A DNA stretch of 64,000 bases from positions 43,374-107,373 of IMG/VR virus record IMGVR_UViG_3300011616_000006; one strand, written 5' to 3'. Origin of the DNA: a virus. Taxonomy: Duplodnaviria; Caudoviricetes. The translations under genes were made by a program, and so were the position numbers. Positions 25,652 through 62,994 of this stretch are shown piece after piece (the first letter of the stretch is position 1; every line of letters begins with the position of its first letter). The notes under the pieces were generated by a model, which was not told the origin of the DNA, ran no database searches, and saw only the letters and a program-made list of their open reading frames with translations.

Positions 25652-28600
25652 TCAGTGTTCATATTTTTCTTTGGGAAACAAACTTTCAAGATCCACATAA
25701 TCATCAACAGCCGCTTTCAAATCAAAGCAAATACCATCCTCTCGCATATGAGCAATAAATCCACCTTCGTCGAATAACCCATATCCAAATATTTTTCTCA
25801 TCTGTGCCATAAACTCAGTTACCCACAGATATGATACCCATACATAGAACTCATTATCATTTACCCACCCCAGTTCATCCACAAGGCAGGTATTATATTC
25901 ATTATCTTCTGTACAGCACAGAATATATAAATCTAAATCGTAGCTGTTGTCCATCTAAACCACCTCTTAAAATAGTTATTTTATCACACCTGTGGTTTGT
26001 GTAAAAATTGCACTAACCACTATTTCTACACTCCCATTTATTACAACTCCCTTCTGCATCCACAAAATCAGCACAATACTCACTGTCGCCGTTCACGCAC
26101 ACCCAAGCAAGACCATACTCATCAAATTGAATCCACTTGCAGGTACTACAAGAATCAAACATATTATTAGTTCTCCATCAAAAATTAATTTACCTGATTG
26201 CCACGCTCATACACAAACAATCTCAATATCTGTTTTGCCTCATTCTCTGTCAGTGAATCCACTGTATCAGAAATATAAGACATGTTGTCTGACTGCAATA
26301 ATTCTTCCTTGATTTTACGCATCTTCATGTTATTTTCTATCAATGCATCTATATCAACCATGCTCTTACCTCACTTTCTCCTACCCATATTGCTCCGGCA
26401 GCACCATCCAAGCAACCACCCCCCTGGCTGCAGCACCATTTCGGCTGCATAAACCCGTCTGCTAATTCATCGAACGCACAAACTACAATATCACCCAGAT
26501 CTGTCTGCACCAGAAACTCACTGTCATTAGCCAGGCGTTCTGCGGCATTTGGTAGCCGCTCGGCCACCGGTATCCACGTATGATAATTTCCGAGCGCTTC
26601 TATCGCATACTTTAATGCCGCATCCTCGTCTGGTGTTTCTATCTCAACATCGCCCTGATAGGTAACGCCCTCTAAGATATCTGTTAAAATATCAATCGCT
26701 TTTTCTTTTTCCATAGTCACTCCTTAAAATCATTTGTACTTGTCGTACTTATCAATTAACCAATTCATATGCCCTTCTAATCGTTCAGGAAAAATAGTTC
26801 CGTTTGCTTTCAGCTTACTTATCTTCTCAATAGTAAGAACCATCTGTGTCTCTTGGACTGTGAGCATTTCTAAAAACAAATTTGATTCCTTATTTCCCAT
26901 TTTTTCAAGCAACATATCATATGTTTGTTGATATGCATTAGCTAGAAGAATTGTCATATTCTCCAACCACTCAGTATAACTATCTAAAGACTCTGGTTGG
27001 TGAAGAGCGACAATTGCCGCCTTTAATGCTGAACACCTGTAAGGGTCATGTGTCTCAGTATACATTTGCTTTAATTGCTGAATATGCTCTTGCATCTTAC
27101 CCCTCCCAACTTTGAGTCGCCACTTCATTAAATATTTCCAACATTTCTTCGTATCCGTGAATTGTCTCTTCAATATGATCAATAATCATTTCTTCAAACT
27201 GTTCTTTTGCTTCATCAAGATCACCTGCAAAAACGCAGCCATCCTCCACACTGAGCATATCTGACCTGTAATTAAACTGCTCCGGATCTTCACGGTCTTG
27301 AGCAAATGCTAGGATTACTTTATCATCATAAAACTCGGTAAAATGCAATTCATAAAACGGAGTTCCAAACTTAATTGACTCATTCCGTTCCCAATGTCGG
27401 TTTGTATATTCAACCATTTTCACCACCTCCAGTCTTAGCTACTCATCTTTCGAAATAATCTTACTATTCCCACTCCATAACCTCGCTGCGCTTTTTACGC
27501 CACGCACACATATCGGAAGATTTAAGCCGTCGTTTCCACTCTTCCCAGTTTGTTGGCCGAAATTCTTGCCATTGTAAATCTGCCAACACAATTGTTAATT
27601 CATCGCCAGCCTTGTCATCAACATTTAAAGGGGGCTTCCATAAATTGATTAAATATATTTCATAGAGATTCATATCCGCCTCGGTGGTCAGTTTGGTATA
27701 CTCAATCAGAGAAACATTATGTATATCTATGGCTCGATGCATTGGTTTAGCAAACATGTGACCTCTAATTCGCGATTGCAATGGTTGCTTGGTTCTTCCC
27801 AGGTAAGCAATCCAGTCACCGTAATAAATCCTATATAAGATAAATCCTTTTGGACTTGCCATCAGTCACAGTCCTCCTCTAAAGCGTTGATCTTTCTTAA
27901 ATACTCTTCTGTACTCATATTTTCTTCCTCTGGAACATCAAAGTCGAAATAGTACATTCGATTTAGTACTTGTTTCATTTCAGAATTGTATCCCTTCATC
28001 AATTCTGCTATTTCAATTAATGAATATTCCTTATCAAAGAAATTATTTGACAGCCATTCATATGCTATTTTTAGTCTGTTACCAGCCCACTTTTCCATCT
28101 GTCACCTTGCTCTATCTCATATTTAATGTAATTTGAATACATGTAACAACCATAAATTTCACACACATATTCACATCTTTCATCATCCCAGCAGCAAAAC
28201 CTACAGCCATGACATTTATCTCCTATTAACGCTCTTCCACTCTTATTTTTATAGGGCATTTGGTTCTTCCAGGCTTTTTATCTTAGAGAGTTTATCATTA
28301 CTCTTTTTAATCTGCTCGAATATTTCATTTTGTTCAGCAACATAACGGCGTGTCACATCAGCACTATTTTCCGTCAAATCATCAATACGTTTCTTCAGTT
28401 GCCTAGTAGCCTTCTTCAGCAGCCCCTGTGTGATGGGAACAAATAGGCATCTGTCCTCAGTATGATGTTTTTCCATCTCAATCTTATCAGTTTCCGTATA
28501 TATACCGGCATCTGGGAGGAAACATGTATAACCATTGCGTTCAGGCCCCCACCAAGTATCAATTTTGTAATGTTTTGACCAATATTCGCTTTTTATAAAA

Positions 28601-29310
28601 TAAAGAATCATCTCCACTCCCTTCATCACTAAAATTCTATAACCCATACCGGAAATGCACCGCGCTCATCTTTGCCGCAATATGTATAGCAACCACTACT
28701 GCTATCGCCGTCATAACCACACCAGTCTGGTACGCGAATATAATATCTGCACCAACGTTCATATACATCATCAATAGTGACCGACTCTTCAATTCCTACT
28801 TCGGCAATCGCCAATGTGATAACTTCTTCCTTAGTAAATTTCTTGGCATGTGCTACAAATTCCCCAGAAGAACCACCAGTAAACTCCATATAATCAAACT
28901 TGCTCATCGTTCTATTCCTCTCTGCTGCCTCACATAATTAGCCGTACTCATAATAGCTTCATTGCAAGAACGTCCAGTACAACTATGCAGCCGACTCCAT
29001 TCACAGAAGGAACACCGACAACACTCGCCGACAGATTTCAAATATTCTATATCAATAGTCAACTGGTCTTTTTCACTCAAATCAGCCACCTCTCCTATCA
29101 TGAAATCTACCTTTTAACGCAGCCCTGTCCTCCGTCTCTTAAAACCAGGCAGATGTCGCTGATTGCTCCATCTCCGCCCCGTGGTTGCCGAGCCACGCAA
29201 TCAACAACCAACGCAACTACATTTCCATTTGTATCTATGTATTTGCAGATAATATTGTCATCCCCCATACCTTTTAACGCTCCTACTAACTCCCTGTTTG
29301 TAAAAATCAA
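25652..29310 (-). other. Array of about 12 small hypothetical phage ORFs (includes DUF551-like 26349-26720 and several Cys-rich mini-proteins)
   Basis: Tightly packed minus-strand ORFs, most with an SD; no recognisable function except WIPVAERLP (DUF551-like). Confidence 0.65.
27464..27862 (-). CDS. GIY-YIG nuclease domain protein
   Basis: ILYRIY...YLGRT..LQSRIRGH...YEIYLI..WKPPLN. Confidence 0.7.
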   Translation of the reverse strand: MASPKGFILYRIYYGDWIAYLGRTKQPLQSRIRGHMFAKPMHRAIDIHNVSLIEYTKLTTEADMNLYEIYLINLWKPPLNVDDKAGDELTIVLADLQWQEFRPTNWEEWKRRLKSSDMCAWRKKRSEVMEWE

Positions 29311-29769
29311 CTATTTATTGCCCTCCCCATAAAAATCTCTGATATAGTCCATTGCCTTCCGCAATCCGTCTCTTCCTGTTTCTACCCGGTCACACTGTTC
29401 ATACTTCCAAGGATGGATTTTGATGCTCAATTCTTTTTTATTTAATTCTTCATCAATAAATCCTATCACCGGCTTTCCATTTAAATATGCATACAATATT
29501 TCGTCATTTGTTCCAATTGACTGCCGGACATTATTTAAGTTGACCAGAATAACATCTGCCGACTGAACTTTTCTCAGATCAAATCTCATTACTTCTTTTT
29601 CTGTTTTATGATAGTTCTTACCATACTCATAAAAATCTGTAGGAGAAATAACCACAAATCCATCATCAATGAAGTTAAAATATTCCTTCACTTTATTACG
29701 CCATCCCTCCGCAATAGTTGTTCCTTCATGCATTTCCATAGCCCCAGCAGTATAAATAATTTTACTCAT
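29311..29769 (-). CDS. Nucleoside 2-deoxyribosyltransferase-like protein
   Basis: IYTAGAM, WR, FDLRKVQSADVILV, SIGTNDE..AY..GKPVI. Confidence 0.75.
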   Translation of the reverse strand: MSKIIYTAGAMEMHEGTTIAEGWRNKVKEYFNFIDDGFVVISPTDFYEYGKNYHKTEKEVMRFDLRKVQSADVILVNLNNVRQSIGTNDEILYAYLNGKPVIGFIDEELNKKELSIKIHPWKYEQCDRVETGRDGLRKAMDYIRDFYGEGNK

Positions 29770-30329
29770 TTTACATTCTCCTTTATAAGTGTAATAATCT
29801 TTTCAACCACCTGATCAATATCACTGCCAACATTGTTATAGACAATCTTATCAGCCACTAATTCAAACCCCTTAAAATCTATTTTGTCAGCATCAAATCT
29901 ACGTTTGGCTTCTTTTTGATCATCGCATCTCATCTTCTGGCGTTTTATAACAGTCTTATCATTTGAAAATAGATAAATGACAAAGATATTATCATCGCAA
30001 TTCCTTTTAAGATTACTTACACCCTCTGGTGTAAGAATCGTAATTGTATTATTGCTGGCGTTTTTAATATCATCTGCTGCTGAACCATAAAACCAATCTT
30101 CACTCTGACCATTGACTTCAGTGTGGTAAACTCTATGTTCTGCAAAGAACCCCTCATTGATCTTATCTTTAAATTCTTCTGCAGATATAAAATGGTATTC
30201 AATATCCTGCGTCTCTCCCGACCGCATTGGTCGGGATGTATAGGTTACTAATTTCTGAAATCCACGCTTCACCAATTCTCTTTGTACTGTATCCTTGCCT
30301 GTACACGAGCGTCCCGACAGAACAATCAT
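29766..30329 (-). CDS. gmk: Guanylate kinase-like protein
   Basis: GRSCTGKDT, YTSRPMRSGE...YHFIS, FYGS. Confidence 0.85.
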   Translation of the reverse strand: MIVLSGRSCTGKDTVQRELVKRGFQKLVTYTSRPMRSGETQDIEYHFISAEEFKDKINEGFFAEHRVYHTEVNGQSEDWFYGSAADDIKNASNNTITILTPEGVSNLKRNCDDNIFVIYLFSNDKTVIKRQKMRCDDQKEAKRRFDADKIDFKGFELVADKIVYNNVGSDIDQVVEKIITLIKENVK

Positions 30330-31222: not shown

Positions 31223-32292
31223 TTATTTATTTTCGAGATCTTTCAGATTTAATCTTTCAACCAATTCACTATACTTTTTCATTTCTTCCATATTCAAACT
31301 TTTTTCGCAAAAGTCATGAATTTCTTTTACCGACTTCCCTTCTTTGCACATGTCTAATACAAAACCCAAGATTCCAACTGCTCCTTGCGTAAAATGTGCG
31401 AACTTGCCATCTTCAATAGCTCTCTTTGCCGTACCAACAACGATATCATTCAATTGTTTCTGTCTTGTCTTTTTATTTTTTAAATATCCCAAATTCATTC
31501 CTCCTCTTTCTTAAAATCATTCTTTCATTTGGTTTGATACTATATCAGCTGAGAGCAGTTCTTGCTTACAATATTCAAGAAACTCATCTGCCCACATTTT
31601 TTTCTTCAATGTATCGAAAATGTACATCGTTTCGTACCCTTTTACTATGTGTTGAAAATCGGGATTCTTCTCGTCCAACCACTCACAACTGTCCCAATTC
31701 CAAAATGAGTCAATTACATAATCGAACTCTGTCCGATATCTCCGTTTATAAATTTCCACTGCCTCATTCAATGAAGTTGCCAATATAAGGCGCTCATACC
31801 TTTTGTTATCTACAACGACACGACGCTGCCTTTTGCGGGAGCGTTCGTACCATTTTTCTTTTGGAGCATTCCCGATTGCATTAAAACTTTGCTCTACATA
31901 GACTAAATATATCTTCTTTTTCATAGTCATCCTCTCGAATATTTCAATTAGCCTAACCATATTGTACATTTCTAAACTGTTAACCCAAATGCACTAATAC
32001 TCATGGAATCGACCTTGCCGTCAGTTGATTTAGTCTCCTCCTCTGTTCCTCCATAATATAGGAGACCATGCATTGTGGCATAAAGGAATTCATCATCTTC
32101 AGCCATTAATGCATTACCTATAACAGCTCCAACCACTTCAGACTTTCCATTCTTATAAATTACAATAGGCTTTCCTGCGACATCCTTATAGGCTTCAATA
32201 ACCGCTTGCTTTTCATATGTAATCCCATTGTGGTCTGGTTTGCCAATAGGTATTGGTATTTTCATCGTAATTTCAATATTTTTGCTCCTCAT
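31223..32292 (-). other. Three hypothetical phage ORFs (31223-31498, 31517-~31930, 31972-32292)
   Basis: SD-led minus-strand ORFs. Confidence 0.6.
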
Positions 32293-32570
32293 AAATCTCC
32301 TTTGAATGATTTATTTTATACGCTCACCACCGAATGTAAAGTTTGCTTTACATTTTATTTAAACTCCCAGTTTTTTAGTTCTTCGCAAAACCTGCGAAAT
32401 GCCTGACTAGAACCAAGCTGCTCTCTTAGAGATTCAGTAACCCCAAAACCAGCACAAGTGAACTCAAACATTTGTCTATAAAACTCGTCTTCCTTATCTG
32501 AAACATCTTCAACCACTTTACTCGATGGCTCCATCTTATTAATGGCCCCTTTCTGATTGAAATTCGTCTT

Positions 32571-33260
32571 TCAAGCCCACTGATTCGCAATAGCCTTTGC
32601 GACTCCTATATATGTTTTGCTACGAATCTTTGCCGTTTCTGGGGAGTTCCACGCCAGAACTTTCCCTTTATCATTTTTTGTATTAAACCCTTTGTATTTT
32701 CCATCTTTTATGTATTGATTTTTCCACCCATCTTTCGGCTTTTCAACAACTTTTGTAGGTGTCAGCAGCGGTAGATTCTTCAACCACAAACATGTTGACT
32801 TTGTCTCTTCATGCCCAAACATCCACGGCTGAATTATTTGGTCTGGCTTACGATAAACTGTTGACATCACCCCTACGGGATTTTCAATCGCTATTCTCTC
32901 ACAATCCGCATTGACGAATGAATTGAAGAATTCAATTGCCTCTTCTCTGTCTTTATGTCGCTGAATAGCTGCATCTCCATATCGATCAATATTGAACCAA
33001 CGATTACCTGCGACTGTAAGATATGTACAAGGTGGAAATGCAATAAGAATATCCCATTTTCCGTTTATTGTATGATTTTTACCATCAACTGTAGTGAACT
33101 GACAATTGCCATTCAGCAGAGGTAAAACATTGGTTTGAATGTGCCACTCTGGGTAGCCACCAGAACATTGCTCCAAATCGCAAGAATATGCTTCATGCCC
33201 CAGACTTCTTAGCTCTTTTGTTACAGCTTGACTCTCTTCACATGCAACTAAAATCTTCAA
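32571..33260 (-). CDS. Phage DNA cytosine methyltransferase-like protein
   Basis: KILVACEESQ, YSCD, AFPPCT catalytic PC, IENP, RSKT..GVA.A.A.QW. Confidence 0.8.
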   Translation of the reverse strand: MKILVACEESQAVTKELRSLGHEAYSCDLEQCSGGYPEWHIQTNVLPLLNGNCQFTTVDGKNHTINGKWDILIAFPPCTYLTVAGNRWFNIDRYGDAAIQRHKDREEAIEFFNSFVNADCERIAIENPVGVMSTVYRKPDQIIQPWMFGHEETKSTCLWLKNLPLLTPTKVVEKPKDGWKNQYIKDGKYKGFNTKNDKGKVLAWNSPETAKIRSKTYIGVAKAIANQWA

Positions 33261-33354: not shown

Positions 33355-34583
33355 TCACTTCGTATATACTCTCTGCATCAATTCTTCCCGTCGCGAAATG
33401 GGTTTCCCGCATACTTGACAGATTCGTTTGCTTTTACGACATGTGCCGCACAAATCAGCCCCATTTACGTAATTAAATACTTCTATTCCGCAGTATTTAC
33501 ATTTGATTAGTTTTATACCCTTTGCAATAGGACAACACACATGGACTGCTACAACTATCACCTCCGTCTTTTCAATCAAACAAAAGTCGCATTTTATTTA
33601 ACCTTTACTTCCGCATTCCCAAATAACAAGTTGCTCCACACGCAGGGCATTTAATGTGTTTTGAGCCATTACCTTTTGCTTTCAAATTTTGTTTTATGTC
33701 ACAATTAGAATACTGCAAAAGCGATTTACATTCCTGACATTCAATCTTGCGATTAATCATACTACCCAATTCTAATACTGTAACCATTATTCCCTCCAAA
33801 TCAAATCTCTATTTCATATATGTCCAACAATCTTGTGTCCGTTAAACTTAGTGTTACATCGAGGGCATTTCTTATAAATCGTAACGTTAAAACAATCTTC
33901 TTCTGGTAAAAAGCTTTTCAACTCAAGAATGAGCCCACAATATTCACACATTGAGCTTATTGCCGAGCAATCATCATTTTTGGGATATGTCCACACCAAT
34001 TATCTGTACTACACTTTCTATAGTTGGTTGAGAATCAATTAGTTCTAAACTAACCCCAAATGGTTTATCCCAATTTGTAATATCTGCTTCTCTCTTTAAT
34101 GCATCCGCGTCAATCAGTCTTCCCATTACAAATCCCTTCTCATATTGTTTTTCAATTATCATAACCATCTTCTTTGAGTGTCATAACAATCTTCTCGATC
34201 TCATTCATCACCTCAAGAAGCTGTGATTTATTCATACAACACAAACTGACCGTGTCCGGAATCGCCATGGTGTATGCTCCAACTTCTTTAGCAATCACAT
34301 CAATCTTTTTATAGTGGTCGATCAATTCCCGGCAGCTGACATTTTCACTATAAGATAAAACGACAATATCATTTGGCTTTGGCTGTAAAATACTCAAATC
34401 AACATCATTCATCTTTGCTCCTTCTTTAACTCATCATATTGTACTTCCAATTCCTGAACCTTTTTACTATGTAGAGCTTTCACTTTTATTGCTACTTCAT
34501 TACCACAGTATTCAGCTATTATTTTCACCATATCATCGAAGGTTCGCACCGGCCACCACTGACCATTTATGTAGATAATACAT
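33355..34583 (-). other. Cluster of small hypothetical ORFs, several with CxxC zinc-ribbon motifs
   Basis: ORFs 33355-33579, 33605-33799, 33814-33999, 33974-~34126, 34152-34412. Confidence 0.55.
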
Positions 34584-34612
34584 AATCACCCCCTTTGAAA
34601 GTGCTGTTTCAT

Positions 34613-36556: not shown

Positions 36557-36557
36557 T

Positions 36558-44625: not shown

Positions 44626-44631
44626 TATGTT

Positions 44632-54268: not shown

Positions 54269-54313
54269 AATATTTCATTCCTTTATATTTATCCTTACCT
54301 AAGCGGCAAGGAA

Positions 54314-54486: not shown

Positions 54487-54494
54487 ACTAATGA

Positions 54495-54857: not shown

Positions 54858-54891
54858 AGTATCAAGCTCCTTTCAGTCGCTATGTCATTCC

Positions 54892-54907
54892 GGCTGCTCC
54901 CGCAGCC
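54892..54907 (-). promoter_or_regulatory. GC-rich hairpin downstream of VR (candidate DGR target-recognition cruciform)
   Basis: GGCTGC-GGGA-GCAGCC about 45 nt after the target stop codon. Confidence 0.6.
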
Positions 54908-54950
54908 CCAAGTTCCCGGCTTCGTTCTGCCGTTTCGAAGATGCGAAGAT

Positions 54951-55715
54951 TTAAGATCGTAAGATGCAAATCGGGCGCACACCCCCGCCGCAGCCATAGT
55001 CGCCGTAGCGGACACCGCCGCTGCTGCGGACACACTGAACACAGTGGTTGCCATAACCAGACGGGGTTGAATCTGGAGTAGCTAGCCACCACCATTTGTC
55101 CATGCTTGGAATATTCTCCCGACATTCTCTGTATAGATCAAGAGTTGGAATTGATAAAATATCCCCCTCTACCACACCATAATCTTTCAGCCCATCAAGC
55201 GAAAGTAGGTCTGTGGTAACCGGCACAAGTCTATCGCCGAATTCCGCCTTCAACGCCTTGCCTAGCTTGCAAATATTCAGTATTTCTCGGATATTTGATG
55301 TTGCATAATTGTTTGACTTGCCAAACTCATGATTACCAAGACTTCCATCAAGCAAATAATATGTACCTTTTTCATCTGTCTTAATTGCCGTCCATGCCCA
55401 GCCAGCCATGATTGTTAGATCCGCCGTCTGCATTTCATCCTTAACCGCCGCACGGAATTCTGCTTCGTATCTTTCTGGATCTTCATCGTACCAGTCTGGA
55501 GTGATGTCCTGATCAACAATATATTTCCAGTCATCTACGCTAGTGGCCTTGTTGCCATCTTTCGGAATTAACTCGGCTCTTATAAACACCTTTGTGGCGT
55601 TTTCGCGAGTATCTTCAATATTAAGGCTCTCCAGCAAAGAAGAGTGACTCTCATTTCCCCTAGGTGCTAACACAACTTTACTTTTCAAAATAATTCCACT
55701 CTTAAATTCGCACAT
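54951..55715 (-). CDS. DGR target protein with C-terminal CLec-like (DUF6273-like) variable domain
   Basis: NNYATSNIR..L, WWWLATP...GVRP C-terminus containing VR; no signal peptide or TM segment. Confidence 0.9.
   Translation of the reverse strand: MCEFKSGIILKSKVVLAPRGNESHSSLLESLNIEDTRENATKVFIRAELIPKDGNKATSVDDWKYIVDQDITPDWYDEDPERYEAEFRAAVKDEMQTADLTIMAGWAWTAIKTDEKGTYYLLDGSLGNHEFGKSNNYATSNIREILNICKLGKALKAEFGDRLVPVTTDLLSLDGLKDYGVVEGDILSIPTLDLYRECRENIPSMDKWWWLATPDSTPSGYGNHCVQCVRSSGGVRYGDYGCGGGVRPICILRS
54972..55055 (-). repeat. DGR variable repeat (VR), 84 bp
   Basis: Ungapped match to TR with 16 differences, all at TR adenines (14 A>G, 2 A>C). Confidence 0.96.
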
Positions 55716-55740
55716 AATTTCAATCTCCTTTTAATTGCTT

Positions 55741-58474
55741 TTATTTATAAATACAGGTTTTATTAATCATTACTGGCCTATAAATCTCATTTATATCTTG
55801 GGCAACGATACCATATGCTGCCAGGACAGCCATTTCCTGTTCATAGGTTTCACAAGCTTTCAGCATTGCACAGATTTCTTTATATTCCGCTTCCAGTGAG
55901 TCCTCCCGAGCTGAAACATCAATGTCCAATTTGTGTAACGCTCCATCTGACACATCAGTTGAATAATTGTGGCAGTCAATATTTAATGCTGGATAACCTT
56001 TTGCCGTGATCAATGAATCTACTCTTTCAACCGCATCCTTTACCTCTTTATAAAAGGGATCTTCTTCGAAAATCTTTTCCGTCTCCTGAGATAAACGCTC
56101 TTGAATTGCCTCTTCTTGTCTTTCTTTCCATAACTTGATGATTGCTGCTGTTCTCAAATTTTTCTCCTCCTCACAACCGTTTTTACAATAAATTCCTGGT
56201 GAACACGAATCCTGACCAAAACAAGCATTAAGTAGTCTCAAACTTCTATCAAATGAATCTTCTTTTATTATTTCGCTTATAGTCATTTCTCTCCCTTCTT
56301 TTGAAACACTGATTTCAGCACTCTGCCTCCCCTTTTAAGTTACCTATTTGAGTTCTAATGTTGGTTAGATCATACTCCATGTCTTCCGCTTTTGTTTTCA
56401 TGGAATCAATCACTTGACTCTTTGTAATTACAGCATATTTCCAAACCCAACTCGAACCATCAACATATAGGCGTGGAAAATTCCAAATGTTTTGCCCTGC
56501 ATCGCCCATAAATCTCACACTTTCGATGGAAAGCCCAGGCATTGCAATTTCGGTATTAAAGTCAAAATCATCAGCGTTGATTTCAAATAAGTACCTCCCA
56601 TCGTCTGGGATGAAATCGCACCTCACCAAATGCATTGGTATTTCGCAATCTTCTATGAACTTTCTTATATTCTCGTAGGCCTGTTCCCACGAACCAGTAG
56701 GACATAGTCCCGCACCGGGGTTTATGCATATATCCATTATTTCCTCCTTAAAATTCTGGTTTCATAAACTTTGATTTAATAAATTTTATTGTTTATTAAT
56801 CATGTAGACAAACAATATACACAATTAAGGGTTATTATATAGAAGTAAGATAAATAAAGCTTTTCATACCTTCCCCCTATATAGTGGAGCCGTCCCCCGG
56901 CTCCTTTTTTATTGACCGCTACCAATAAACTCCAGCATCATATTCTGCAGCTTATCAATATTCTGCTGAATCTTCTTTGGAATAATATCTGCAACTTTGT
57001 TGAATGCTTCATTTTGATCATCCGTTAGCAAATCTGAACGTTCTATATGTAGCTCACGGCAAGTAAGCAACCATGTTCCCGGATGATGTATATGCCTATG
57101 TACAACTACTTTACATTCGTTTAGTCTCAGCTCCCAAATGCGAGGAATCCACTCCTTATCATCCCTTGAATACGATGTTACATCTTTCCATTTAGATATA
57201 TTCATATTTCTCCTTTCCCCGGCTAACCGGTTAAAATTATTCATTTGGATAAACCGGAAACATCTCACAACTCAACATGTTGCACAACCCTTCTTTTGAC
57301 AAACTAAGAATATAATCTGCTACAATACTTTTTGCTTCATTTATTTCTGTCACTTCATTAAGATTTATATGTAACCTCATTTCAAATTTTTTCGCTTTGT
57401 CGATATATGGTATTGGGTTTATGTATCCCATGTGCTTCTCCTTCCTTGAACCACAGCCGGATAAAATTAATTTACATATTTTCGTTCCAAGCACAAATTT
57501 CACAAGTTTTCGGGCATACACCTGATTTAATTGCCCTTTGACACATTTCTCTTTTGCTTATTTTTTTCACCTCTAACACCCCGATCATGCGCAATAATTT
57601 CTTTAATAAACCGACAAAAATATTTTCTTTCCTCATACTACAGACTCCTATTCCAAATATTAATTTAATGATAGTTTCCACACATCATCTGATGATCCAC
57701 TTCACATCCATCTATGATGCAAATATGTTTTTCTGAAATTGTCTTGCCGTTCTCATCTGTAATTTCTTTCAATGCACAGCTTTGACAGTTTAAACAACTC
57801 ATTCCAGTGTCATATACAAACCCCATATTATTTCCTCCTATATGAATTGATGATTTCTTCTATGTACTTAGTTTGACAGGCTCCTGATTGCGATACATGT
57901 ACTTTCTTGTTGACAAACCATCCACACATTTCTGTATATTACCAGCTGCGATTTTACCAAAATCACTTCGCAATATCGTGTCTACAATGAGTAATTCATC
58001 TTTGACTATTCTCCGCTGCTCTAGCAAATCCTTCAGCTCTCGAAACATTTTGTAACCATTACAGGCGTTTACCTTGGCTGCGAATTCAATTTCGTGCTCC
58101 ATATCAACTTTTCGCTTATCCGGGGTGGATAGTTGACTTGCAAGTTCTGTTTTTCTCTGTAAAGCATCATCTGCCAACCCATTAAGACCCTTTATCCTCT
58201 CAACCCATGTTTGGACGGATACATGTGTTTCTTTTACATCACATATAAGTTTCGGTTCACACGCTTTCTCTAATGTCACCGATGGTCTTTCCGAAATCTC
58301 AGGGATTGCTTCTGTCTTAAAATTCATCCGCTTAAGCGGTTTGGGTAAAGATGCAATAACATTCTTCGCCTTAGAATATTCAAACCTCTGGGCATGATTT
58401 TTTACGCAAGTTTCCGCTTTACCATTTTCGTTCAGGCGGATATATACCTTATTGTTTCGAATGAAATAATCCAA
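55741..58474 (-). other. Hypothetical ORFs 55741-56286, 56315-56737, 56909-57205, small ORFs, and 57860-58474 (coiled-coil)
   Basis: SD-led minus-strand ORFs; the 57860 ORF starts at TTG 58474, not inside the tRNA. Confidence 0.6.
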
Positions 58475-58515
58475 CTTATCCCCTCCTCGTTCCTTTTTTG
58501 AGTACAAAAAACCAA

Positions 58516-58589
58516 TTGAAGCTGTGGGACTCGAACCCACGACCGACCGGTTATGATCCGGTTGCTCTGACCAGCTGAGCTAAGATTCC
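58516..58589 (-). tRNA. tRNA with CAT anticodon, Ile2-like body, degenerate acceptor stem
   Basis: GGAATCT..GCTC/GAGC..ACCGG-ATCATAA-CCGGT..GTGGG-TTCGAGT-CCCAC-AGCTTCA-A; mismatches G1:A72 and T5:C68, A at position 32. Confidence 0.75.
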
Positions 58590-58593
58590 ATTA

Positions 58594-58651
58594 CAGGGCT
58601 AGTCAAGTTCATGAATCAAAATCCTGTGCCTTACCACTTGGCGATAACCCT
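58594..58651 (-). pseudogene. tRNA-Gln(TTG)-derived gene lacking the T arm
   Basis: Acceptor AGGGTTA/TAGCCCT and D arm GCC-AAGTGGTAA-GGC intact, anticodon loop TTTTGAT, only 8 nt in place of variable loop plus T arm. Confidence 0.7.
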
Positions 58652-58832
58652 CTATTTAGTTTGTAATAACTCGCTTCATAATTTTCTGGATAATTTTGGA
58701 TAATGTGAAACCCACGCTTCAGATATAATTAATCATGCGTGGTATCCACGTATCTAAATTCTTGACCTTTCAGGTCATGAGTTTACAATTGCTATTGAGT
58801 GAGCCGGAGGTGCGCCAACACCGTTTGACGGC

Positions 58833-59156
58833 TCATTCTTTATTTCCCTTATTGGATATGTATACTTTGAAATTCTCAAAACTTATTTCATAAATATGAT
58901 GATATGTATTTGCGATTTTACTTCCGTGTTTTCTTAATTTCACTCTCAGGCTAAGATTTAAATCGATTGTTATTTCCATTCTATTATCTTGACTACATAA
59001 ATAAATTTTCTTACCATCATCATTAATATCCAGCATTGGGTGTACAAACCGCATACAACTTTTACCTAAGTCAAAATTATATGGCCCTGGCAAAACTTTG
59101 ACATTCAAAATACTATTTTTTGAATCTTTCAAAAAACTCATTAAGCTTTCATTCAT
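58833..59156 (-). CDS. Hypothetical protein, first gene of a LexA-controlled transcript
   Basis: SD GGGAG; promoter and SOS box upstream. Confidence 0.6.
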   Translation of the reverse strand: MNESLMSFLKDSKNSILNVKVLPGPYNFDLGKSCMRFVHPMLDINDDGKKIYLCSQDNRMEITIDLNLSLRVKLRKHGSKIANTYHHIYEISFENFKVYISNKGNKE

Positions 59157-59188
59157 TCTCTATCTCCCAATATCCATCGCTCTATTTT

Positions 59189-59242
59189 CGAACATTTGTT
59201 CTGCTTGTTTTCTATATTACCATGTCATATTTATTATGTCAA
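59189..59242 (-). promoter_or_regulatory. SigA promoter with downstream LexA (Cheo) box
   Basis: TTGACA-17-TAATAT (59242-59214); AGAACAAATGTTCG at 59202-59189 fits GAAC-N4-GTTC. Confidence 0.8.
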
Positions 59243-59301
59243 TCTTTTTTACAAACATATTTTGGCACATTTCAAAGCAATCGAGGGTTTAAATACTATC
59301 A

Positions 59302-60285
59302 TCACTGATAGTATTTACCTTTCATCACATAAGGAAGACACAAACGCCTAACTTCTGTTGCATTTTTTGCTTCTTTTGTAAACCCATAATTATTAGCGTA
59401 CTCTACAATTTTTGTAAACCCTCTCTCATTGTTCCGAACATAGAATAACTTAATAAAATAATCAAGAGGTTTTTTATTTTCATCACACTTTTCTTTTACA
59501 TAATTAATAAAACCAGATATATATAACATATCATATGATACTGTGTACCCAGCGCAAAGAGAAATCCGCTTGAAGTAGTTAGAAATGTTTGCTGTCATAT
59601 TCTTTTGATATAGTGAATCTGTTAAGTTGTCTGTATCACTAATTTTAAAAATATAGTCTTTATATGAGGTTAGTGACATTATATTAATTTTAGGGTTATT
59701 AGCACCAGGCCCATATCCTTCGTAAATATAAATATCTCGATACTGCTCTAATGCAATAAAGAAAGCCTCTGTCATTCTTCGAGTTTTTCCTCCAGCTGTG
59801 ATAATTCTTTCGTCAAAATCCACATCTTCGTATTTAAGAAGCACAAACTCCTTAATATTCCTTATCCCTTCATAAAATCCCCTAATTAAAACTTCATATA
59901 ATATTTTATTTCGTTCCTGTTTCTGAATTAAAACCTCAACATCTTCATCATAAAAAGCTTTAATATCCATAACCTCGACGTTCTTTTCAATAAAATACTC
60001 ATTGTCGAATTCTTCCTCTTTGAGCACATTAGTACTTATATAACGTTTCTCTACACACCAATCAAAAAACATACTTATTCTCCCTTTTTGATTGAGCATG
60101 AATTTCAATGATCTAGATTTTTTCCCTAGAACACCTGCTATGAAGTCTATCAGTTCGTCACTATCTAGTTCAAACAGATCAGCATTGTACACCACCTCTT
60201 TATCCAATGCGGCCTTGGCATGAGGATTAATTTCGCAGTACTCTTTTATAATCCGCTTATAATCTGCTGCTGTATATTTTCCCAT
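59302..60285 (-). CDS. Degenerate tyrosine-recombinase-fold protein, MrpR/YopR-like phage repressor
   Basis: FFDWC..N-terminal SAM-like part, FYEGIR..LKYEDVD, LYISG in place of HxxR; own promoter TTGACA-17-TATAGT (60343-60315). Confidence 0.65.
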   Translation of the reverse strand: MGKYTAADYKRIIKEYCEINPHAKAALDKEVVYNADLFELDSDELIDFIAGVLGKKSRSLKFMLNQKGRISMFFDWCVEKRYISTNVLKEEEFDNEYFIEKNVEVMDIKAFYDEDVEVLIQKQERNKILYEVLIRGFYEGIRNIKEFVLLKYEDVDFDERIITAGGKTRRMTEAFFIALEQYRDIYIYEGYGPGANNPKINIMSLTSYKDYIFKISDTDNLTDSLYQKNMTANISNYFKRISLCAGYTVSYDMLYISGFINYVKEKCDENKKPLDYFIKLFYVRNNERGFTKIVEYANNYGFTKEAKNATEVRRLCLPYVMKGKYYQ

Positions 60286-60364
60286 TTCATCACACCTCTT
60301 CAACTTATATGACTACTATATCACAGCAAACAGAACCTGTCAATACACATTTCAAAGTATAATT

Positions 60365-61318
60365 TCAAAAATCTTCGAAGACGCTGTTCCAAAACTCTAG
60401 ATCCCTCTCCTGCTCGATTCCCAGATATCTAGTTGTATCATTAAAACTTGAATGGTTAAAACTGCTTTTAATCTTTCCCGCTGCTGTTAACGGATCTAGG
60501 CCTGCTGCCATCCCCTTTTCATAACCACGATATGCGTATGTCTTCCGTAAACTTCTACCGGCGTAATTTCCTTTAAGTCCACAATCTTCCGCGAATTGTT
60601 TAACCACCTTTCTAATTCCAGCTTCTGTCAAATAAAACTGTCTTACCTTGTAGGGGATATTATATTTTTTTAAATATTCGATTTTGATATCCAATTGCCG
60701 CTCAGTTAACCCTCTATGTTTCAATTTTTTATATTCATCTATAGAAGTTTCTACTGTTATGTCCACATCGTCTATTATTTTAGCTTTACCATATCTTATA
60801 TCGTATATTTCATACAGTTTTTTTTGGCTGGTAAAAATATAATTATCAGCAATTATATCTGGTTGAACAGTTGCAACATACTCTTGGATGTATTTTTTGA
60901 CACTATTGGTTAATTGGAATCTGCGGGTTTTCCCTGTTTTTTGTTCTATGATATTTTGTGGGTTATCATGAAAATTGGTGTTTTTATCAAAGAACACTCC
61001 CCATGTCACTTTTTTTAAATCTGAAACCCTGAAACCCGACATGATCCCCAGCATAAACAATAGTTTGTTTCTAGCCTCCTGGTTTCTCTTACAAACCGTC
61101 TTCGCATCATCTATTTTTTGTTGAAAATACTGAGTTATCTGATCTATACTTTCTCGTGACTTTATTGGATCAACCCATGTCGTCACTCCCGTATTATCGG
61201 GTGCAATATTTGAAGATTTTTTGGTCACCTGAGCCTTAATATTATTTTCTACGTATTTTTTCAAATAAATGATATTATTAATGCCATCTTGTCTTGTTAT
61301 CTGTTCCAATGCCCCCAT
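60365..61318 (-). CDS. Second tyrosine recombinase (stand-alone catalytic domain)
   Basis: SGFRVSDL, EQKTGK, RSLRKT (R in place of H), FNHSS, TRYLG. Confidence 0.88.
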   Translation of the reverse strand: MGALEQITRQDGINNIIYLKKYVENNIKAQVTKKSSNIAPDNTGVTTWVDPIKSRESIDQITQYFQQKIDDAKTVCKRNQEARNKLLFMLGIMSGFRVSDLKKVTWGVFFDKNTNFHDNPQNIIEQKTGKTRRFQLTNSVKKYIQEYVATVQPDIIADNYIFTSQKKLYEIYDIRYGKAKIIDDVDITVETSIDEYKKLKHRGLTERQLDIKIEYLKKYNIPYKVRQFYLTEAGIRKVVKQFAEDCGLKGNYAGRSLRKTYAYRGYEKGMAAGLDPLTAAGKIKSSFNHSSFNDTTRYLGIEQERDLEFWNSVFEDF

Positions 61319-61320
61319 GA

Positions 61321-61668
61321 CTAACTCCCCCTTCTTTTACTGAGTAAAAGCAAACTTCTTACTTGCCCCATCTTAATCATATTATTTTTATCTGTTTGTA
61401 CAATACTATATAGATCAAGATGGGGGCATATTGTATCTTCATTATAGAAAATACTTTTAGCTCCCTTTATCAATGCCACACCATGAGGCAATGTTATCTT
61501 TTCTATTGGGCCGCAAGTAATATCATTGTCATAATCTATCATTGTACTAGGAATAATTTCTTCGTCCAAATTTTCCAATACTTTTACTGCCTCTTGCATT
61601 AGTTGAATACTTTCCTTTAAAATCTGGATAGCATCTTCCACCTTGACACTGTAAAATGACTCTTTCAT
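61321..61668 (-). CDS. Hypothetical protein between mazF and the recombinase
   Basis: SD AGGAGG; operonic spacing. Confidence 0.6.
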   Translation of the reverse strand: MKESFYSVKVEDAIQILKESIQLMQEAVKVLENLDEEIIPSTMIDYDNDITCGPIEKITLPHGVALIKGAKSIFYNEDTICPHLDLYSIVQTDKNNMIKMGQVRSLLLLSKRRGS

Positions 61669-61676
61669 TTTGCCTC

Positions 61677-62063
61677 CTAATTTATCAACTCAGGCACAAG
61701 GTCAGCTTTGCCAGTAAAATTAGCAATATAAGCTGCCCCCACCTGATGCTGAGTTTTCTTGTTCTGAATACGACCCCTTCTACGCTCTGGCCGGAGTAAT
61801 GATTTGTCAATCATCCTAATATTTTCTGCCAACACCATTGAATCGCAAGATAAACCAGGAGCATCCTGTGGTCTAACTAATACGTGAGTTGGCTGCTCCA
61901 GTCTTTTGATTTGACTTGTCATTGGCAAAACAAGGCAATTGGGACTATATTTATTTCCAATATCATTCTGAATGATTACGTATGGTCGCTCTCCCGACTG
62001 TGAATGTGCAACATTTTCACTAGGTAAATTCAAAATGTAAATGTCAAATCTTTTTATATCCAA
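61677..62063 (-). CDS. mazF: PemK/MazF-family endoribonuclease toxin
   Basis: IKRFDIY..L..SQSGERPYVIIQNDIGNKYSP..PMTS..PTHV..DSMVLAENIRMIDK. Confidence 0.9.
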   Translation of the reverse strand: MDIKRFDIYILNLPSENVAHSQSGERPYVIIQNDIGNKYSPNCLVLPMTSQIKRLEQPTHVLVRPQDAPGLSCDSMVLAENIRMIDKSLLRPERRRGRIQNKKTQHQVGAAYIANFTGKADLVPELIN

Positions 62064-62110
62064 GCATTTCCCCCCTTCCTCTTATGTATTTTCGATTTTC
62101 TCATGTCTCC

Positions 62111-62206
62111 ATTATATAGGTATATACCTATTTTTGCAAGATGTAATTATAGCAGAAAATAGCCACATAATTGGTCGTCTTTTTGTGCAAATTATAGGTA
62201 TATACC
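62111..62206 (-). promoter_or_regulatory. mazF promoter with palindromic operators
   Basis: TTGCAA-17-TATAAT with perfect palindrome TAGGTATATACCTA (62117-62130) in the spacer; second GGTATATACC at 62197-62206. Confidence 0.75.
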
Positions 62207-62235
62207 CGTTTTATTTTCAGAAAAAAACGAGATGA

Positions 62236-62415
62236 TCATTTACCATCCCGTTCCAGCTTTTCTTTGACAGCCTCGTTTATATATCCATTCACGGTACTTC
62301 CAGTTGAAATTATTCGTTCCTTAGTCCCTTTAGGAAACCTTACTAATATATTATCGTTCGCCTTGTCATGATATTTCTTTGATGCCCGTTCCTGAGCCTT
62401 TTTGTCTACCGGCAT
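62236..62415 (-). CDS. Small ribbon-helix-helix/Arc-like DNA-binding protein
   Basis: AQERASKKY..DNILVRFPKGTKERI..TVNGYINEAV.EKL; promoter TTGACA-17-TATTAT (62474-62446). Confidence 0.7.
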   Translation of the reverse strand: MPVDKKAQERASKKYHDKANDNILVRFPKGTKERIISTGSTVNGYINEAVKEKLERDGK

Positions 62416-62994
62416 TATTCCAACACCTCTCATTTTTATGTTAGAATAATATATCATATCCAGAGAAATGTCAAATCCTCATGAAATACTTATTTTAGAG
62501 CACCAGGAGCAAAAAGAAAAAGACCCGTCATAGGTCTTTTTTATTCTTCTACAGGAACAACATCAATTACAACTCCGGTGGACGTACTATATACATCTCC
62601 CAATACTCATAGCTATTTCCGTCTTCATCCAGGATAGGCCTTGAGGCTTTGTATCGTTCCTTCGGCTCTCTCTTTTCAAGCTTCACCCCTCTATAAATCT
62701 TAGATTTCATTTGTTGTTTACTAATCCCTCGGAAAAAGCATACTTCCGCAGTTTGGACAGTATGTAACCTCAATTCTTTGCATATTCCCAGCAATAAACA
62801 TCATCAATTCGCCTTTACCGGCCTCGCCTACGCCGACAAATACACAATTATTATCATCTCTATAGAACAGTGGCTTATCACCGACACAGCAGTCACAACC
62901 GCTGTCAATCACTTTTGCCATAACATCTCCTCTCTCCCCATATTAAATTATAAATCAACTGGTAGTCTTTGACAACTACCAGTCGTATGTATCA

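Follow-up and report, generated by a model that had tools for sequence, protein, structure and literature searches.

A dispersed 5-6-5 inverted motif at gene junctions of an SPbeta-type prophage and its possible role as a recombinase site at module joints

What purpose is served by a short inverted motif that recurs between the early genes of a temperate phage? This question arose from a 64,000-nt stretch of phage DNA (hereafter, the window), in which an earlier note had observed the sequence T(A/G)AAA-N6-TTT(C/T)A, i.e. TRAAA-N6-TTTYA, at many gene junctions and had proposed an integron-like system of gene cassettes. A scan against shuffled sequence, as the note had suggested, found 14 exact copies in the window, compared with a shuffle mean of 1.47 and a maximum of 4. 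Thirteen of them lie within 25968-62497, where we reproduced both of the reported counts, 13 exact copies and at least seven with one mismatch at junctions or in intergenic gaps (60352, 58706, 51589, 49874, 48747, 33801 and 32303). Only an arm spacing of 6 was enriched (22 copies, compared with 1-5 at each other spacing tested from 0 to 12), and the everted and direct arm arrangements that we tested showed no enrichment. The whole 6.55-Mb genome contains 123 copies of the motif and 131 of its reversed control. Only two contigs show an excess: C22, which is the window, and C38, which is the other part of the same prophage and holds nine further copies, all in its last 14 kb. The 5-6-5 motif is real and its geometry is fixed. 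Individual copies, to which no strand is assigned, are listed below.

62482-62497, exact copy: has an intrinsic terminator (62541-62517) on one side and, on the other, the -35 box of the strong promoter 62474-62446
61652-61667, exact copy: overlaps the start codon of ORF 61321-61668, an atypical placement; may be a chance occurrence
60352-60367, one-mismatch copy TGAAATTATACTTTGA: starts at the recombinase gene's stop codon; the MrpR-like gene's promoter (60343-60315) has its -35 box 8 nt downstream of the copy
56749-56764, exact copy: abuts the Shine-Dalgarno (SD) sequence (AGGAGG) of gene 56315-56737
56302-56317, exact copy: its opening TGA is the stop of gene 56315-56737; followed by the SD of 55741-56286
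53226-53241, exact copy: the stop (TAG) of the reverse-transcriptase gene lies in the spacer; followed by the SD of 53022-53213
52093-52108, exact copy: immediately 5' of the SD of gene 51608-52078
51589-51604, one-mismatch copy TGAATCCACTCTTTTA: immediately 5' of the SD of gene 51257-51568
51102-51117, exact copy: immediately 5' of the SD of gene 50931-51086
49874-49889, one-mismatch copy TGAAACGACACATTCA: begins at the stop codon of gene 49887-50138
48747-48762, one-mismatch copy AGAAACCAATATTTTA: upstream of gene 48517-48726
47875-47890, exact copy: 9 nt past the stop codon of 47900-48136, bordering the replication block on its upstream side; not followed by an SD
34596-34611, exact copy: 1 nt past the stop codon of the gene for NAD-dependent ligase, bordering the replication block on its downstream side; followed by an SD
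33801-33816, one-mismatch copy TGAAATAGAGATTTGA: immediately 5' of the SD of gene 33605-33787
32558-32573, exact copy: its first TGA is the stop of gene 32571-33260; followed by the SD of 32355-32534
32303-32318, one-mismatch copy TAAAATAAATCATTCA: abuts the SD of gene 31972-32292
31512-31527, exact copy: the stop of gene 31517-31969 lies in the spacer; followed by the SD of 31223-31498
29101-29116, exact copy: the stop of gene 29107-29310 lies in the spacer; followed by the SD of 28904-29080
25968-25983, exact copy: abuts the SD of gene 25652-25954, which directly precedes the anaerobic ribonucleotide reductase (NrdD) gene

Copies of the motif are found in the early arm, immediately ahead of ribosome-binding sites. 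The minus strand carries every gene in 20000-64000, and the observation that nearly all copies are at gene junctions was borne out by 12 of the 13 exact copies in 25968-62497. They were also said to lie near an upstream stop codon and 5' of the next SD; indeed, 11 of the 13 are followed by an SD 0-8 nt on and a start codon 10-23 nt on, and in five the preceding gene's stop codon is part of the copy. According to rough gene calls, nine of the 13 are mostly non-coding, compared with 20% non-coding DNA overall (p = 2e-4). The ligA-to-SSB replication block (34611-47875) contains no copy between the two that flank it, again as the note had described. The copy at 9054, which is inside an ORF and outside the early arm, looks like a chance occurrence.

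The motif is conserved across a large clade of SPbeta-type temperate siphophages, which includes this prophage, a 160-kb Lachnospiraceae-type phage, phiCD211 of C. difficile and SPbeta of B. subtilis. It is enriched in these distant relatives (62, 31 and 36 copies, respectively), and persists in relatives with a DnaE identity of only 29-38%. The SPbeta consensus is longer, TYTRRA-TAAAA-N6-TTTTA-TYYARA, which gives an 11-6-11 layout, whereas outside SPbeta only 5-7 bp of each arm are conserved. In the stretches of the SPbeta record that we examined, the motif carries no annotation.

Given its location, the motif might be supposed to act in RNA, as a small hairpin 5' of the ribosome-binding site of early genes, at which the RNA would be processed, its 5' end stabilised or a translational regulator bound. 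The restriction to early genes fits this idea, as does the fixed short distance to the SD and start codon (relative G028 has TAAAA-N6-TTTTA-AGAGGT-N7-ATG, and its modal distance is 13 nt). However, the R of one arm and the Y of the other vary independently of each other: 23 oriented copies from the window and C38 comprise 10 GC, 2 AU, 6 GU and 5 AC combinations, close to the 10.4, 2.4, 5.6 and 4.6 expected under independence, so that there is no covariation and A-C combinations occur at chance frequency. A hairpin with a 6-nt loop and five stem pairs, mostly A-U, would also be unstable, and the motif is identical when read on either strand. Copies 62482 and 60352, which the note had correctly placed just upstream of -35 boxes, and copy 76171 of SPbeta precede the -35 box of the downstream promoter, two of the three following a terminator, and are therefore outside the downstream gene's own transcript. 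In addition, mosaic joints at both edges of the motif, described below, are unexpected for an element of the downstream mRNA. We regard a function in RNA as improbable and conclude that the motif is a double-stranded DNA site.

If so, which protein might read it? The following genes of the window bear on this question.

61677-62063, minus strand: PemK/MazF-like toxin gene, in a conserved module
60365-61318, minus strand: orphan small tyrosine recombinase, 317 aa (Pfam PF00589, 3e-8; PHROG 216 integrase, 1.7e-28)
59302-60285, minus strand: MrpR/SroF/YopR-like repressor, 327 aa; predicted tyrosine-recombinase fold, no conserved catalytic residues
19567-20826, minus strand: ordinary tyrosine integrase, 419 aa, at the prophage end (Pfam PF00589, 3.6e-16)

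The order of the conserved module is PemK, a protein of ~95-115 aa, recombinase and MrpR-like protein. The resemblance of the last to MrpR, which the note had pointed out, is supported by its AF2 model (pLDDT 93.9), whose best fold matches are SroF of phi3T (9rd5_H, TM 0.63), MrpR (8a0a) and YopR (8bpz); its profile match is XerA (6e-6), and only G140 and G258 are nearly invariant in the family alignment. This predicted fold and the two copies just upstream of -35 boxes would favour the alternative in the note that the copies are operators of this protein. However, the ChAP-seq peaks of SPbeta MrpR (10) are at SPBRE, about TAGACAAAtACAAAtAATATGTATAtAAT, which is unlike the motif with its 36 SPbeta copies, and the box to which SroF binds, as a monomer, is asymmetric and 24-26 bp long; SPBRE is the MrpR/SroF operator of SPbeta-like phages (PMC10516654; bioRxiv 10.1101/2025.11.27.690993). 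SPBRE is likewise a dispersed repeated element of this phage family and is sometimes found beside the motif, as at the SPbeta aimR promoter, where motif 76171 is 22 nt before the SPBRE core, but its ~10 copies are embedded in promoters, whereas SPbeta-like genomes contain 34-45 copies of the motif each, mostly inside operons. The motif is distinct from the MrpR/SroF operator, the 59302-60285 protein is not likely to read it, and the proposal that the copies are its operators is very hard to sustain.

As our search yielded no close relative of the window phage, the breakpoint check that had been recommended was run on the SPbeta and phiCD211 families, both of which carry the motif. The motif is located exactly at the edges of many homology blocks in both; at these blocks, related phages have different genes as neighbours. 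Of 209 unique block boundaries in the SPbeta family, 35 are within 10 nt of a motif, compared with 1.9 at random positions, and the phiCD211 family has 13 of 154 at the motif, compared with 1.3. Motif edges thus coincide with block starts or ends 10-18 times as often as random positions do, although counts across related genomes are of non-independent events. A boundary is present at 24 of the 36 SPbeta sites and is 3.5-7 times likelier at motif-bearing junctions than at other junctions. In the SPbeta family, homology begins most often at positions -1 to +1 (72/139) and ends most often at positions 16-17 (38/141). The whole site, including the spacer, is common to the upstream and downstream modules. 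Furthermore, phiCD211 and AR1086 differ by a 4.4-kb indel with both ends within motif copies, in which the 5-6-5 register is kept, with only 8-9 bp shared on each side.

The spacers are unique within each of 11 genomes, and those of the window are all distinct from one another, as claimed for the cores. Only 3 of 126 spacer columns are variable in the SPbeta family, compared with 11.6% in the adjacent flanks (p = 4e-4). In the phiCD211 family the difference was not significant (9 of 84, compared with 15.6%), and the arms there were no better conserved than the flanks either. The spacer is thus unique to each site and yet more conserved than its flanks in SPbeta-like phages, a result that was not reproduced in phiCD211 and to that extent counts against a recombinase.

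These results bear directly on the integron-like proposal, in which promoterless circular cassettes (site, SD and ORF) would be excised and inserted at any copy by the stand-alone recombinase, with non-matching spacers tolerated. As in integrons, promoterless genes form a co-directional array with a recombination-type site between them and a tyrosine recombinase nearby, and the breakpoints at motifs in the two related families, the apparently intact catalytic set of the recombinase, the AR1086 insertion between two copies with related spacers, and tandem copies 8 nt apart in phiCD211, which resemble an empty slot, are all in its favour. However, such cassettes predict similar frequencies of homology ending at position 16 and beginning at 12, and likewise of homology beginning at 1 and ending at 5; we counted 47 versus 1 (the single case begins at 12-13) and 72 versus 8. 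The spacers within a genome all differ, no cassette lies between identical sites, and segments replaced with motifs at both ends are not in excess (22, compared with ~20 expected under independence). An integron attC is a 57-141-bp imperfect hairpin that is recombined as single-stranded DNA and travels with its cassette, whereas the motif is a 16-bp palindrome common to both neighbours, with no long attC-like hairpin, attI-Pc platform or IntI-type enzyme but a small YopP-type one. Thus, breakpoints at the motif and a seemingly competent enzyme stand, but the system is not integron-like in detail, and we consider cassettes in the strict sense improbable.

We tentatively propose, as a possibility somewhat short of even, that the motif is a core-type site for the orphan YopP-type tyrosine recombinase and is used as a joint for module exchange. 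The note had identified a second stand-alone tyrosine recombinase at 60365-61318, and the presence of the integrase at 19567-20826 indeed makes it a second, orphan enzyme. It keeps the full catalytic set R-K-(R/H)xxR-H-Y (R97, K127/K130, R258, H289 and Y298 are invariant in the family alignment), and its box I matches that of SPbeta YopP, of which it appears from sequence to be the counterpart. It is our candidate for the protein that reads the motif. A PF00589 tyrosine recombinase is encoded by all of the related phages that were examined, in most cases one of ~330-380 aa. SPbeta integrates by means of the serine recombinase yokA, so that YopP is a conserved enzyme without a known job. In the proposed mechanism, the two 5-bp arms around the 6-bp spacer (11-6-11 in SPbeta) would form a core-type site bound by a dimer of the enzyme, here the 60365-61318 protein, which would bring together equal sites of two related genomes resident in one cell and exchange the flanks. 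We infer both binding and catalysis for this candidate. Modules would then be swapped at gene boundaries, with genes and operon read-through left intact, and the placement before ribosome-binding sites would follow if the motif takes up the only free DNA between tightly packed genes.

Several observations count against a recombinase. SPbeta YopP has a Lys in place of the second catalytic Arg, the 5-7 bp arms outside SPbeta are short for a recombinase-binding element, and G201, which by DnaE is the nearest relative (75% identity), shows just a degenerate form of the motif, though it encodes tyrosine recombinases. Segments with motifs at both ends are at the level of independence, as noted above.

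The main alternative is that the motif is a dispersed operator or roadblock, bound by a dimeric phage regulator (HTH or a non-catalytic recombinase-like protein) that tunes or silences long early operons. The module joints would be a by-product, with short conserved intergenic sequences acting as linkers for homologous or annealing-type recombination and only joints at gene borders surviving selection. This reading, to which we assign a real but lesser chance, fits the early-arm restriction and the closeness to ribosome-binding sites and promoters, which also count against a recombinase, as well as the independently varying half-sites expected of a dimer on DNA and a 5-6-5 spacing that is the classic one-helical-turn layout of dimeric operators. 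Single-strand annealing proteins are encoded (Sak in L079, Erf in phiCD211), ~83% of block boundaries are away from motifs, and ordinary homologous recombination within long shared blocks accounts for the laboratory phi3Ts x SPbeta hybrids; the last two points likewise weigh against a recombinase. However, an operator leaves unexplained the spacer conserved above its flanks in the SPbeta family and fits poorly with the register kept in the phiCD211/AR1086 indel; its regulator is hypothetical, and the known master repressor, MrpR, does not occupy the motif sites. Other phages, too, have dispersed palindromes at gene junctions, for example the stoperators of L5 and the conserved inverted repeats of phiC31. 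Like the motif, the stoperators of Cluster A mycobacteriophages (L5 gp71) and the phiC31 repeats comprise tens of short sites in short intergenic gaps by stop and start codons of a temperate phage genome. Stoperators, however, lack symmetry, follow the direction of transcription and are binding sites of the immunity repressor, whereas the motif is symmetric and the immunity repressor of its family (MrpR/SroF) binds a different, long asymmetric box.

Joints of exchanged modules have precedents. 'Linker' or 'boundary sequences' were proposed for lambdoid phage mosaicism, and Arbiol et al. reportedly described, in 2010, PeSL as mobile regulatory cassettes of T4-type phages; both are, like the motif, short conserved intergenic elements found repeatedly between accessory genes, at the joints of modules that related phages exchange. 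A PeSL, however, consists of an early promoter and a stem-loop and acts via homologous recombination, whereas the motif is a 16-bp palindrome without -35/-10 boxes, has a site-specific spacer, and could plausibly be read by a dedicated tyrosine recombinase. As a core-type site, it would resemble XerCD dif (11-6-11), loxP (13-8-13) and FRT, in which inverted arms surround a spacer, but those occur once or twice per genome, whereas this putative site occurs dozens of times and has short arms outside SPbeta. We know of no natural system of dispersed core-type sites. There is also a likeness to engineered cassette exchange with heterospecific lox or FRT sites, where, as here, spacers differ within one genome and are identical between partner sites at the joints.

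The inverted motif TRAAA-N6-TTTYA, which consists of two 5-nt arms around a 6-nt spacer, occurs 14 times in the window, compared with 1.47 copies expected and a maximum of 4 in shuffled sequences. The earlier note had described the accessory genes between 25968 and 62497 as punctuated by this motif, and the set is real: 13 of the 14 exact copies lie inside that range. Every gene from 20000 to 64000 is on the minus strand, and when the motifs are read on this strand, 12 of the 13 copies are located at gene junctions. A Shine-Dalgarno sequence follows 0-8 nt after the motif, and the next start codon within 10-23 nt, in 11 copies; in five, the motif includes the stop codon of the preceding gene, which is the left-arm TGA in some and lies within the spacer in others. 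At least seven one-mismatch copies are placed like the exact ones. The replication block contains no motif copy, and the single exact copy outside the motif-bearing arm (the early arm) is most likely a chance match. These two features are as follows.

34611-47875, replication block, encoding a ligase, a DnaE-type polymerase, a DHH protein, a DnaB-type helicase and an AAA_24 protein
9054-9069, exact motif copy inside ORF 8802-9614, outside the early arm

The original observation was thus confirmed in all respects, in its counts, its junction placement and the empty replication block.

We also placed the window in its host genome of 6.55 Mb, where it corresponds to positions 1-63950 of contig C22 in reverse orientation. 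Genome-wide, the motif is not enriched (123 copies vs 131 for the reversed control). The excess is limited to C22 and C38, a contig that carries the other part of the same prophage and has 9 copies in its last 14 kb. In the early arm of approximately 60 kb, spacing 6 alone is enriched, with 22 copies compared with 1-5 at each other spacing from 0 to 12, and neither everted nor direct arm arrangements show any enrichment. This arm encodes NrdD, an NAD-dependent ligase and the DnaE-type polymerase, and the late arm, on C38, encodes the terminase, the portal, a 2085-aa ORF and an 891-aa protein of phrog_8308. The nearest named relatives by DnaE (33-36% identity) are Geobacillus virus E3, Clostridium phage c-st, phiCD211, Lactococcus phage 949 and large Bacillus siphophages. 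No close relative was found by megablast against phages, by peptide-pattern scans of genome, viral and metagenome contigs, by exact-protein look-up or by BLAST against the remaining host genome. The best relative, the genome G201, has only the replication block in common with the window phage, at approximately 70% DNA identity.

The motif recurs across the phage clade. A 160-kb phage (G028:C55; DnaE 29% identical) has 62 copies; its early arm holds approximately 53 of these, and its late arm is almost free of them. The copies that precede approximately 150 genes, 46 exact and 8 with one mismatch, have the form TAAAA-N6-TTTTA-AGAGGT-N7-ATG. The same spacing-6 peak was observed in G187:C56, the faecal phage MT835469, phiCD211 and a 108-kb metagenomic relative (L079), and the copies precede ribosome-binding sites in all of these except MT835469. 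SPbeta has 36 copies at spacing 6, compared with 0-10 at other spacings, and six further SPbeta-like phages have 34-45. The extended SPbeta consensus, TYTRRA-TAAAA-N6-TTTTA-TYYARA, has an 11-6-11 layout. Beyond the conserved element, which is 16 bp long (in SPbeta at most 28 bp), the flanks are not further conserved. G201, the closest genome by DnaE (75%), has only a degenerate version. In phiCD211, a tandem pair 8 nt apart precedes one gene (19658-19697; TAAAATCATGGTTTTA aatgatta TAAAATGTCAGTTTTA) and could be what remains of a module slot, lost or empty. The motif has no feature annotation in the examined stretches of the SPbeta record. No account of the motif turned up in the searchable literature, a set without the 1999 SPbeta genome paper (Lazarevic et al.), and an earlier mention is possible.

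Next, we considered whether the motif acts as RNA or as DNA. The arms could pair, and the possible stem is 5 bp long; a 5-bp A/U stem would be unstable. Among 23 oriented copies, the R and Y positions of the arms vary independently (GC 10, AU 2, GU 6 and AC 5, compared with 10.4, 2.4, 5.6 and 4.6 expected under independence), and therefore base pairing has not been selected. Copy 62482 has a terminator on one side and the -35 box of a strong promoter on the other, copy 60352 has another -35 box 8 nt downstream, and SPbeta copy 76171, before aimR, shows the same terminator-motif-promoter order as 62482. Being upstream of the -35 box, these three copies are outside the transcript of the downstream gene. 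Given both the lack of selection for pairing and these positions, an RNA element is unlikely, and the motif is a clade-wide, junction-bound element of the early arm that acts as double-stranded DNA. More generally, -35/-10 boxes were found neither within the motif nor at a fixed distance from it.

The proximity of two copies to -35 boxes had led the earlier note to suggest, as an alternative, that the copies are dispersed operators of the MrpR-like protein encoded at 59302-60285. The label itself was well chosen. A structural model of this 327-aa protein, built with 46 homologues (pLDDT 93.9), gave 9rgl, 8a0a, 9rd5 (TM 0.63), 8bpz and 8bj6 as the top Foldseek matches (E = 2e-8 to 4e-7), so that the predicted fold is closest to phi3T SroF and SPbeta MrpR/YopR, with Cre, Tn1549 Int and XerA ranked below. 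Among the homologues, only two glycines are nearly invariant, and the conservation summary contains no conserved Arg, His and Tyr set. The operator assignment is unlikely. All ten ChAP-seq peaks of MrpR are at SPBRE, the operator of SPbeta-like phages (PMC10516654), and SroF binds as a monomer to an asymmetric box of 24-26 bp (bioRxiv 10.1101/2025.11.27.690993). In the SPbeta sequence, SPBRE (approximately TAGACAAAtACAAAtAATATGTATAtAAT) lies within promoters and differs from the motif. The motif is therefore distinct from the repressor operator, and by analogy with SPbeta the repressor of the window phage would be expected on an SPBRE-type box. In SPbeta (NC_001884), a box of the form TAGACAAA-N-ACAAA-N-A-ATATGTATA-TAAT also recurs at or within promoter-like sequences at approximately 12 places (e.g., 76190-76225, 83400-83430 and 129200-129230), and it fits the SPBRE/MrpR operator when set beside the published description, rather than the spelled-out sequence, of SPBRE.

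A long SPBRE-like box was not found in window positions 44000-64000; the repeat pair found there instead belongs to a diversity-generating retroelement of the early arm (53234-55715), with the following features.

53234-54268, minus strand, reverse-transcriptase gene (RVT_1)
54385-54473, template repeat, in the 226-nt gap upstream of the reverse-transcriptase gene
54495-54818, small ORF between the two repeats, which may be Avd-like
54967-55055, variable repeat, at the 3' end of the target gene 54951-55715

The template and variable repeats share 80% identity, and they differ by T to C/G changes on the plus strand, which makes the changes adenine-specific on the coding strand.

Other owners of the site were also considered. 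Known host regulator sites have other layouts (CcpA cre, 5-4-5; CodY, everted arms; ComK, AAAA-N5-TTTT; ArgR, 5-4-5); none of these fits the 5-6-5 arrangement with its free spacers, nor is the motif enriched in the host genome. The late arm starts with the gene of the 891-aa protein (C38:34538-37213, minus strand; L021:14538-17213), which matches phrog_8308 (1.7e-92) and, weakly, a family with the annotation RNA-dependent RNA polymerase; the protein may be a YonO-type single-subunit RNA polymerase. We rejected the motif as a promoter of such an enzyme, given that the 891-aa gene heads the motif-free late arm and had no SPbeta match in the search run.

The window encodes two tyrosine recombinases in addition to the MrpR-like protein of the same general fold group.

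19567-20826, integrase of the ordinary tyrosine type, at the prophage end
60365-61318, minus strand, orphan tyrosine recombinase (317 aa)
59302-60285, minus strand, MrpR-like protein (327 aa)

The orphan recombinase adjoins the MrpR-like gene, with motif copies on either side, in a lysogeny module that consists of a PemK/MazF toxin, a 115-aa protein, the recombinase and the 327-aa protein. This order is kept in the relatives found through the recombinase. A PemK/MazF-like toxin, a 94-115-aa protein, the small tyrosine recombinase, an MrpR-like repressor and an 88-aa protein form a conserved gene order in distant relatives (L079 and L081; window 61321-62063), so that a toxin gene is an integral part of the lysogeny module. 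The 317-aa protein (Pfam PF00589, 3e-8; PHROG integrase, 1.7e-28) carries the catalytic set of PF00589, namely R97, K127/K130, R255-x-x-R258, H289 and Y298; in an alignment, R97, K127/K130, R258, H289 and Y298 are invariant among 18 homologues and position 255 is Arg or His. Its box I matches that of SPbeta YopP, which has Lys where the second catalytic Arg is expected. We dropped the idea that the presence of a recombinase tracks the strength of the motif, because a Pfam search found tyrosine recombinases in every phage, including G201.

Since the window phage has no close relative in the collections, we examined breakpoints in the SPbeta family (SPbeta, phi3T, Goe13, SPbetaL8, L4, L3 and SPR) and the phiCD211 family, both of which carry the motif, by using unique boundaries of megablast blocks. 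With SPbeta as the reference, 35 of 209 boundaries fell within 10 nt of a motif, compared with 1.9 at random positions, and the other six genomes as references gave 27-38 compared with approximately 2; because the genomes are related, these counts include the same historical events more than once. Boundaries were carried by 24 of the 36 SPbeta motif sites, and at the junction level a boundary was 3.5-7 times more likely in motif-bearing gaps than in other gaps. In the phiCD211 family, 13 of 154 boundaries were within 10 nt of a motif, compared with 1.3. Thus, in both families the motif coincides with the joints of modules.

The boundaries in the SPbeta family peak at the motif edges. Read in the coding direction, 72 of 139 cases have homology starting at position -1, 0 or +1 of the motif, and 38 of 141 have it ending at positions 16-17 (47 at 16-18, including 9 at 18); a start at the right arm was seen only once, and an end at the left arm eight times. 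This indicates that the whole 16-mer, including the spacer, is common to whichever side is homologous, and the exchange partners must have carried identical 16-mers. The left-edge peak is partly forced by gene packing, because the upstream stop codon lies in or adjoins the left arm; the right-edge peak is approximately five times the per-position level of the next 12 nt. Single cases inspected in the phiCD211 family had joints to the left of, to the right of and inside the motif, and either end of a 4.4-kb indel lies within a motif copy with the 5-6-5 register kept, which is stronger evidence for joints inside the motif. Approximately 83% of the block boundaries are away from motifs, and replaced segments with motifs at both ends show no excess (22 vs approximately 20 expected under independence). 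In laboratory hybrids of phi3Ts and SPbeta, the switch intervals are 1.4-18 kb of identical sequence, apart from one 40-nt interval without a motif; these switches fit ordinary homologous recombination and are uninformative on the motif.

The layout of the motif is that of a dimer-binding site, and its binding partner could be a dimeric regulator, with recombination at the joints only incidental. We regard this, the main rival reading, as rather doubtful. We tentatively place ahead of it, though at somewhat less than an even chance, the reading that the motif is a core-type site of the orphan YopP-type tyrosine recombinase and would serve as a joint for exchange between co-resident related phages. 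In geometry the motif is like dif/lox-type core sites, and in outcome it is like the PeSLs of T4-type phages and lambdoid boundary sequences. A PeSL is an intergenic repeat that combines an early promoter and a stem-loop; the motif likewise coincides with the joints of shuffled modules in the SPbeta and phiCD211 families, but it lacks promoter boxes and has the Shine-Dalgarno sequence within 0-8 nt. It resembles stoperators and phiC31 inverted repeats in its genome-wide spread. Stoperators (L5 gp71) are asymmetric, have one orientation to transcription and are bound by the immunity repressor, whereas the present motif is a palindrome and the repressor would, by analogy with SPbeta, be expected on SPBRE.

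The earlier note had interpreted the junction motifs as an integron-like system of gene cassettes. The part of this idea that holds is the location of breakpoints at the motif in two related families. An attC site is an imperfect inverted repeat of 57-141 bp with R''-L''/L'-R' boxes that folds as single-stranded DNA; it travels with one cassette, with the crossover at one fixed point of the right core, and an IntI-type recombinase lies beside attI and the Pc promoter at the head of the array. In contrast, the present site is no long hairpin but an element of 16 bp (28 bp at most in SPbeta), and in the SPbeta-like relatives the whole motif is common to both neighbours and does not move along with a single cassette. 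There is also no attI-Pc platform; the recombinase lies in the lysogeny module, and its relatives are small YopP-type or 199-aa recombinases. A strict integron-like mechanism is therefore unlikely.

As noted earlier for the window, the spacers within a genome are all different, and this is true in each of 11 genomes; it is only weak evidence for avoidance of duplicates, given that the number of site pairs predicts an estimated three or so chance duplicates in total. Among SPbeta-like phages, 3 of 126 spacer columns at orthologous sites are variable, compared with 11.6% in the adjacent 54 positions (p = 4e-4), 4-6% in the arms and 13-15% in the outer arms, and pairwise divergence is 2.2% in the spacer compared with 4.75% in the surroundings. 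This conservation was not reproduced in the phiCD211 family (9 of 84 vs 15.6%, not significant), in which the arms vary like the flanks.

A further reading, which we consider improbable, is an address-coded cassette exchange in which each gene junction of the early arm would hold a recombinase core site with the 6-bp spacer as its address. The YopP-type recombinase would join a site of one phage to a site of a co-resident, related phage only if their addresses match, so that accessory modules would be swapped position for position, and the sites of one genome, having distinct addresses, would never recombine together and delete genes. This would be a natural counterpart of recombinase-mediated cassette exchange with heterospecific spacers. 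It would explain the unique spacers of each genome, the conserved spacers at orthologous SPbeta-like sites, the 16-mer common to both neighbours at the joints and the retention of a YopP-type recombinase in SPbeta-like phages.

It is an old question whether the mosaicism of temperate phages arises from exchange guided by linker sequences or from random joints filtered by selection. Here, one motif is common to large prophages of Bacillus, Clostridioides and gut Lachnospiraceae and lies at the exact joints of exchanged modules, which carry anti-defence, toxin-antitoxin and retroelement genes. This is broader than the earlier note could see, and in part agrees with its idea. Given that SPbeta in B. 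subtilis 168 has 36 copies and YopP, a conserved recombinase without an assigned function, the matter is directly testable by standard genetics. Exchange driven by a dedicated enzyme would be a new route by which phages trade accessory genes and possibly a ready-made tool for multi-site cassette exchange; otherwise, a model phage would still have in this motif an unannotated control or linker element that is found throughout its clade.

Two minor observations concern the prophage itself. At least 12 other contigs of the genome carry the sequence of C22:1-54 (window 63897-63950) at an end, and C38 ends in sequence matching the start of C7. It seems that the prophage is split between C22 and C38 by a multi-copy element, which is probably an insertion sequence. 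The genes for the AAA_24 protein and the DnaB-like helicase are separated by a 545-nt gap (approximately 44626-45170), in which GGTTCGATTCC has the form of a typical tRNA T-arm; the gap may hold a phage tRNA gene.
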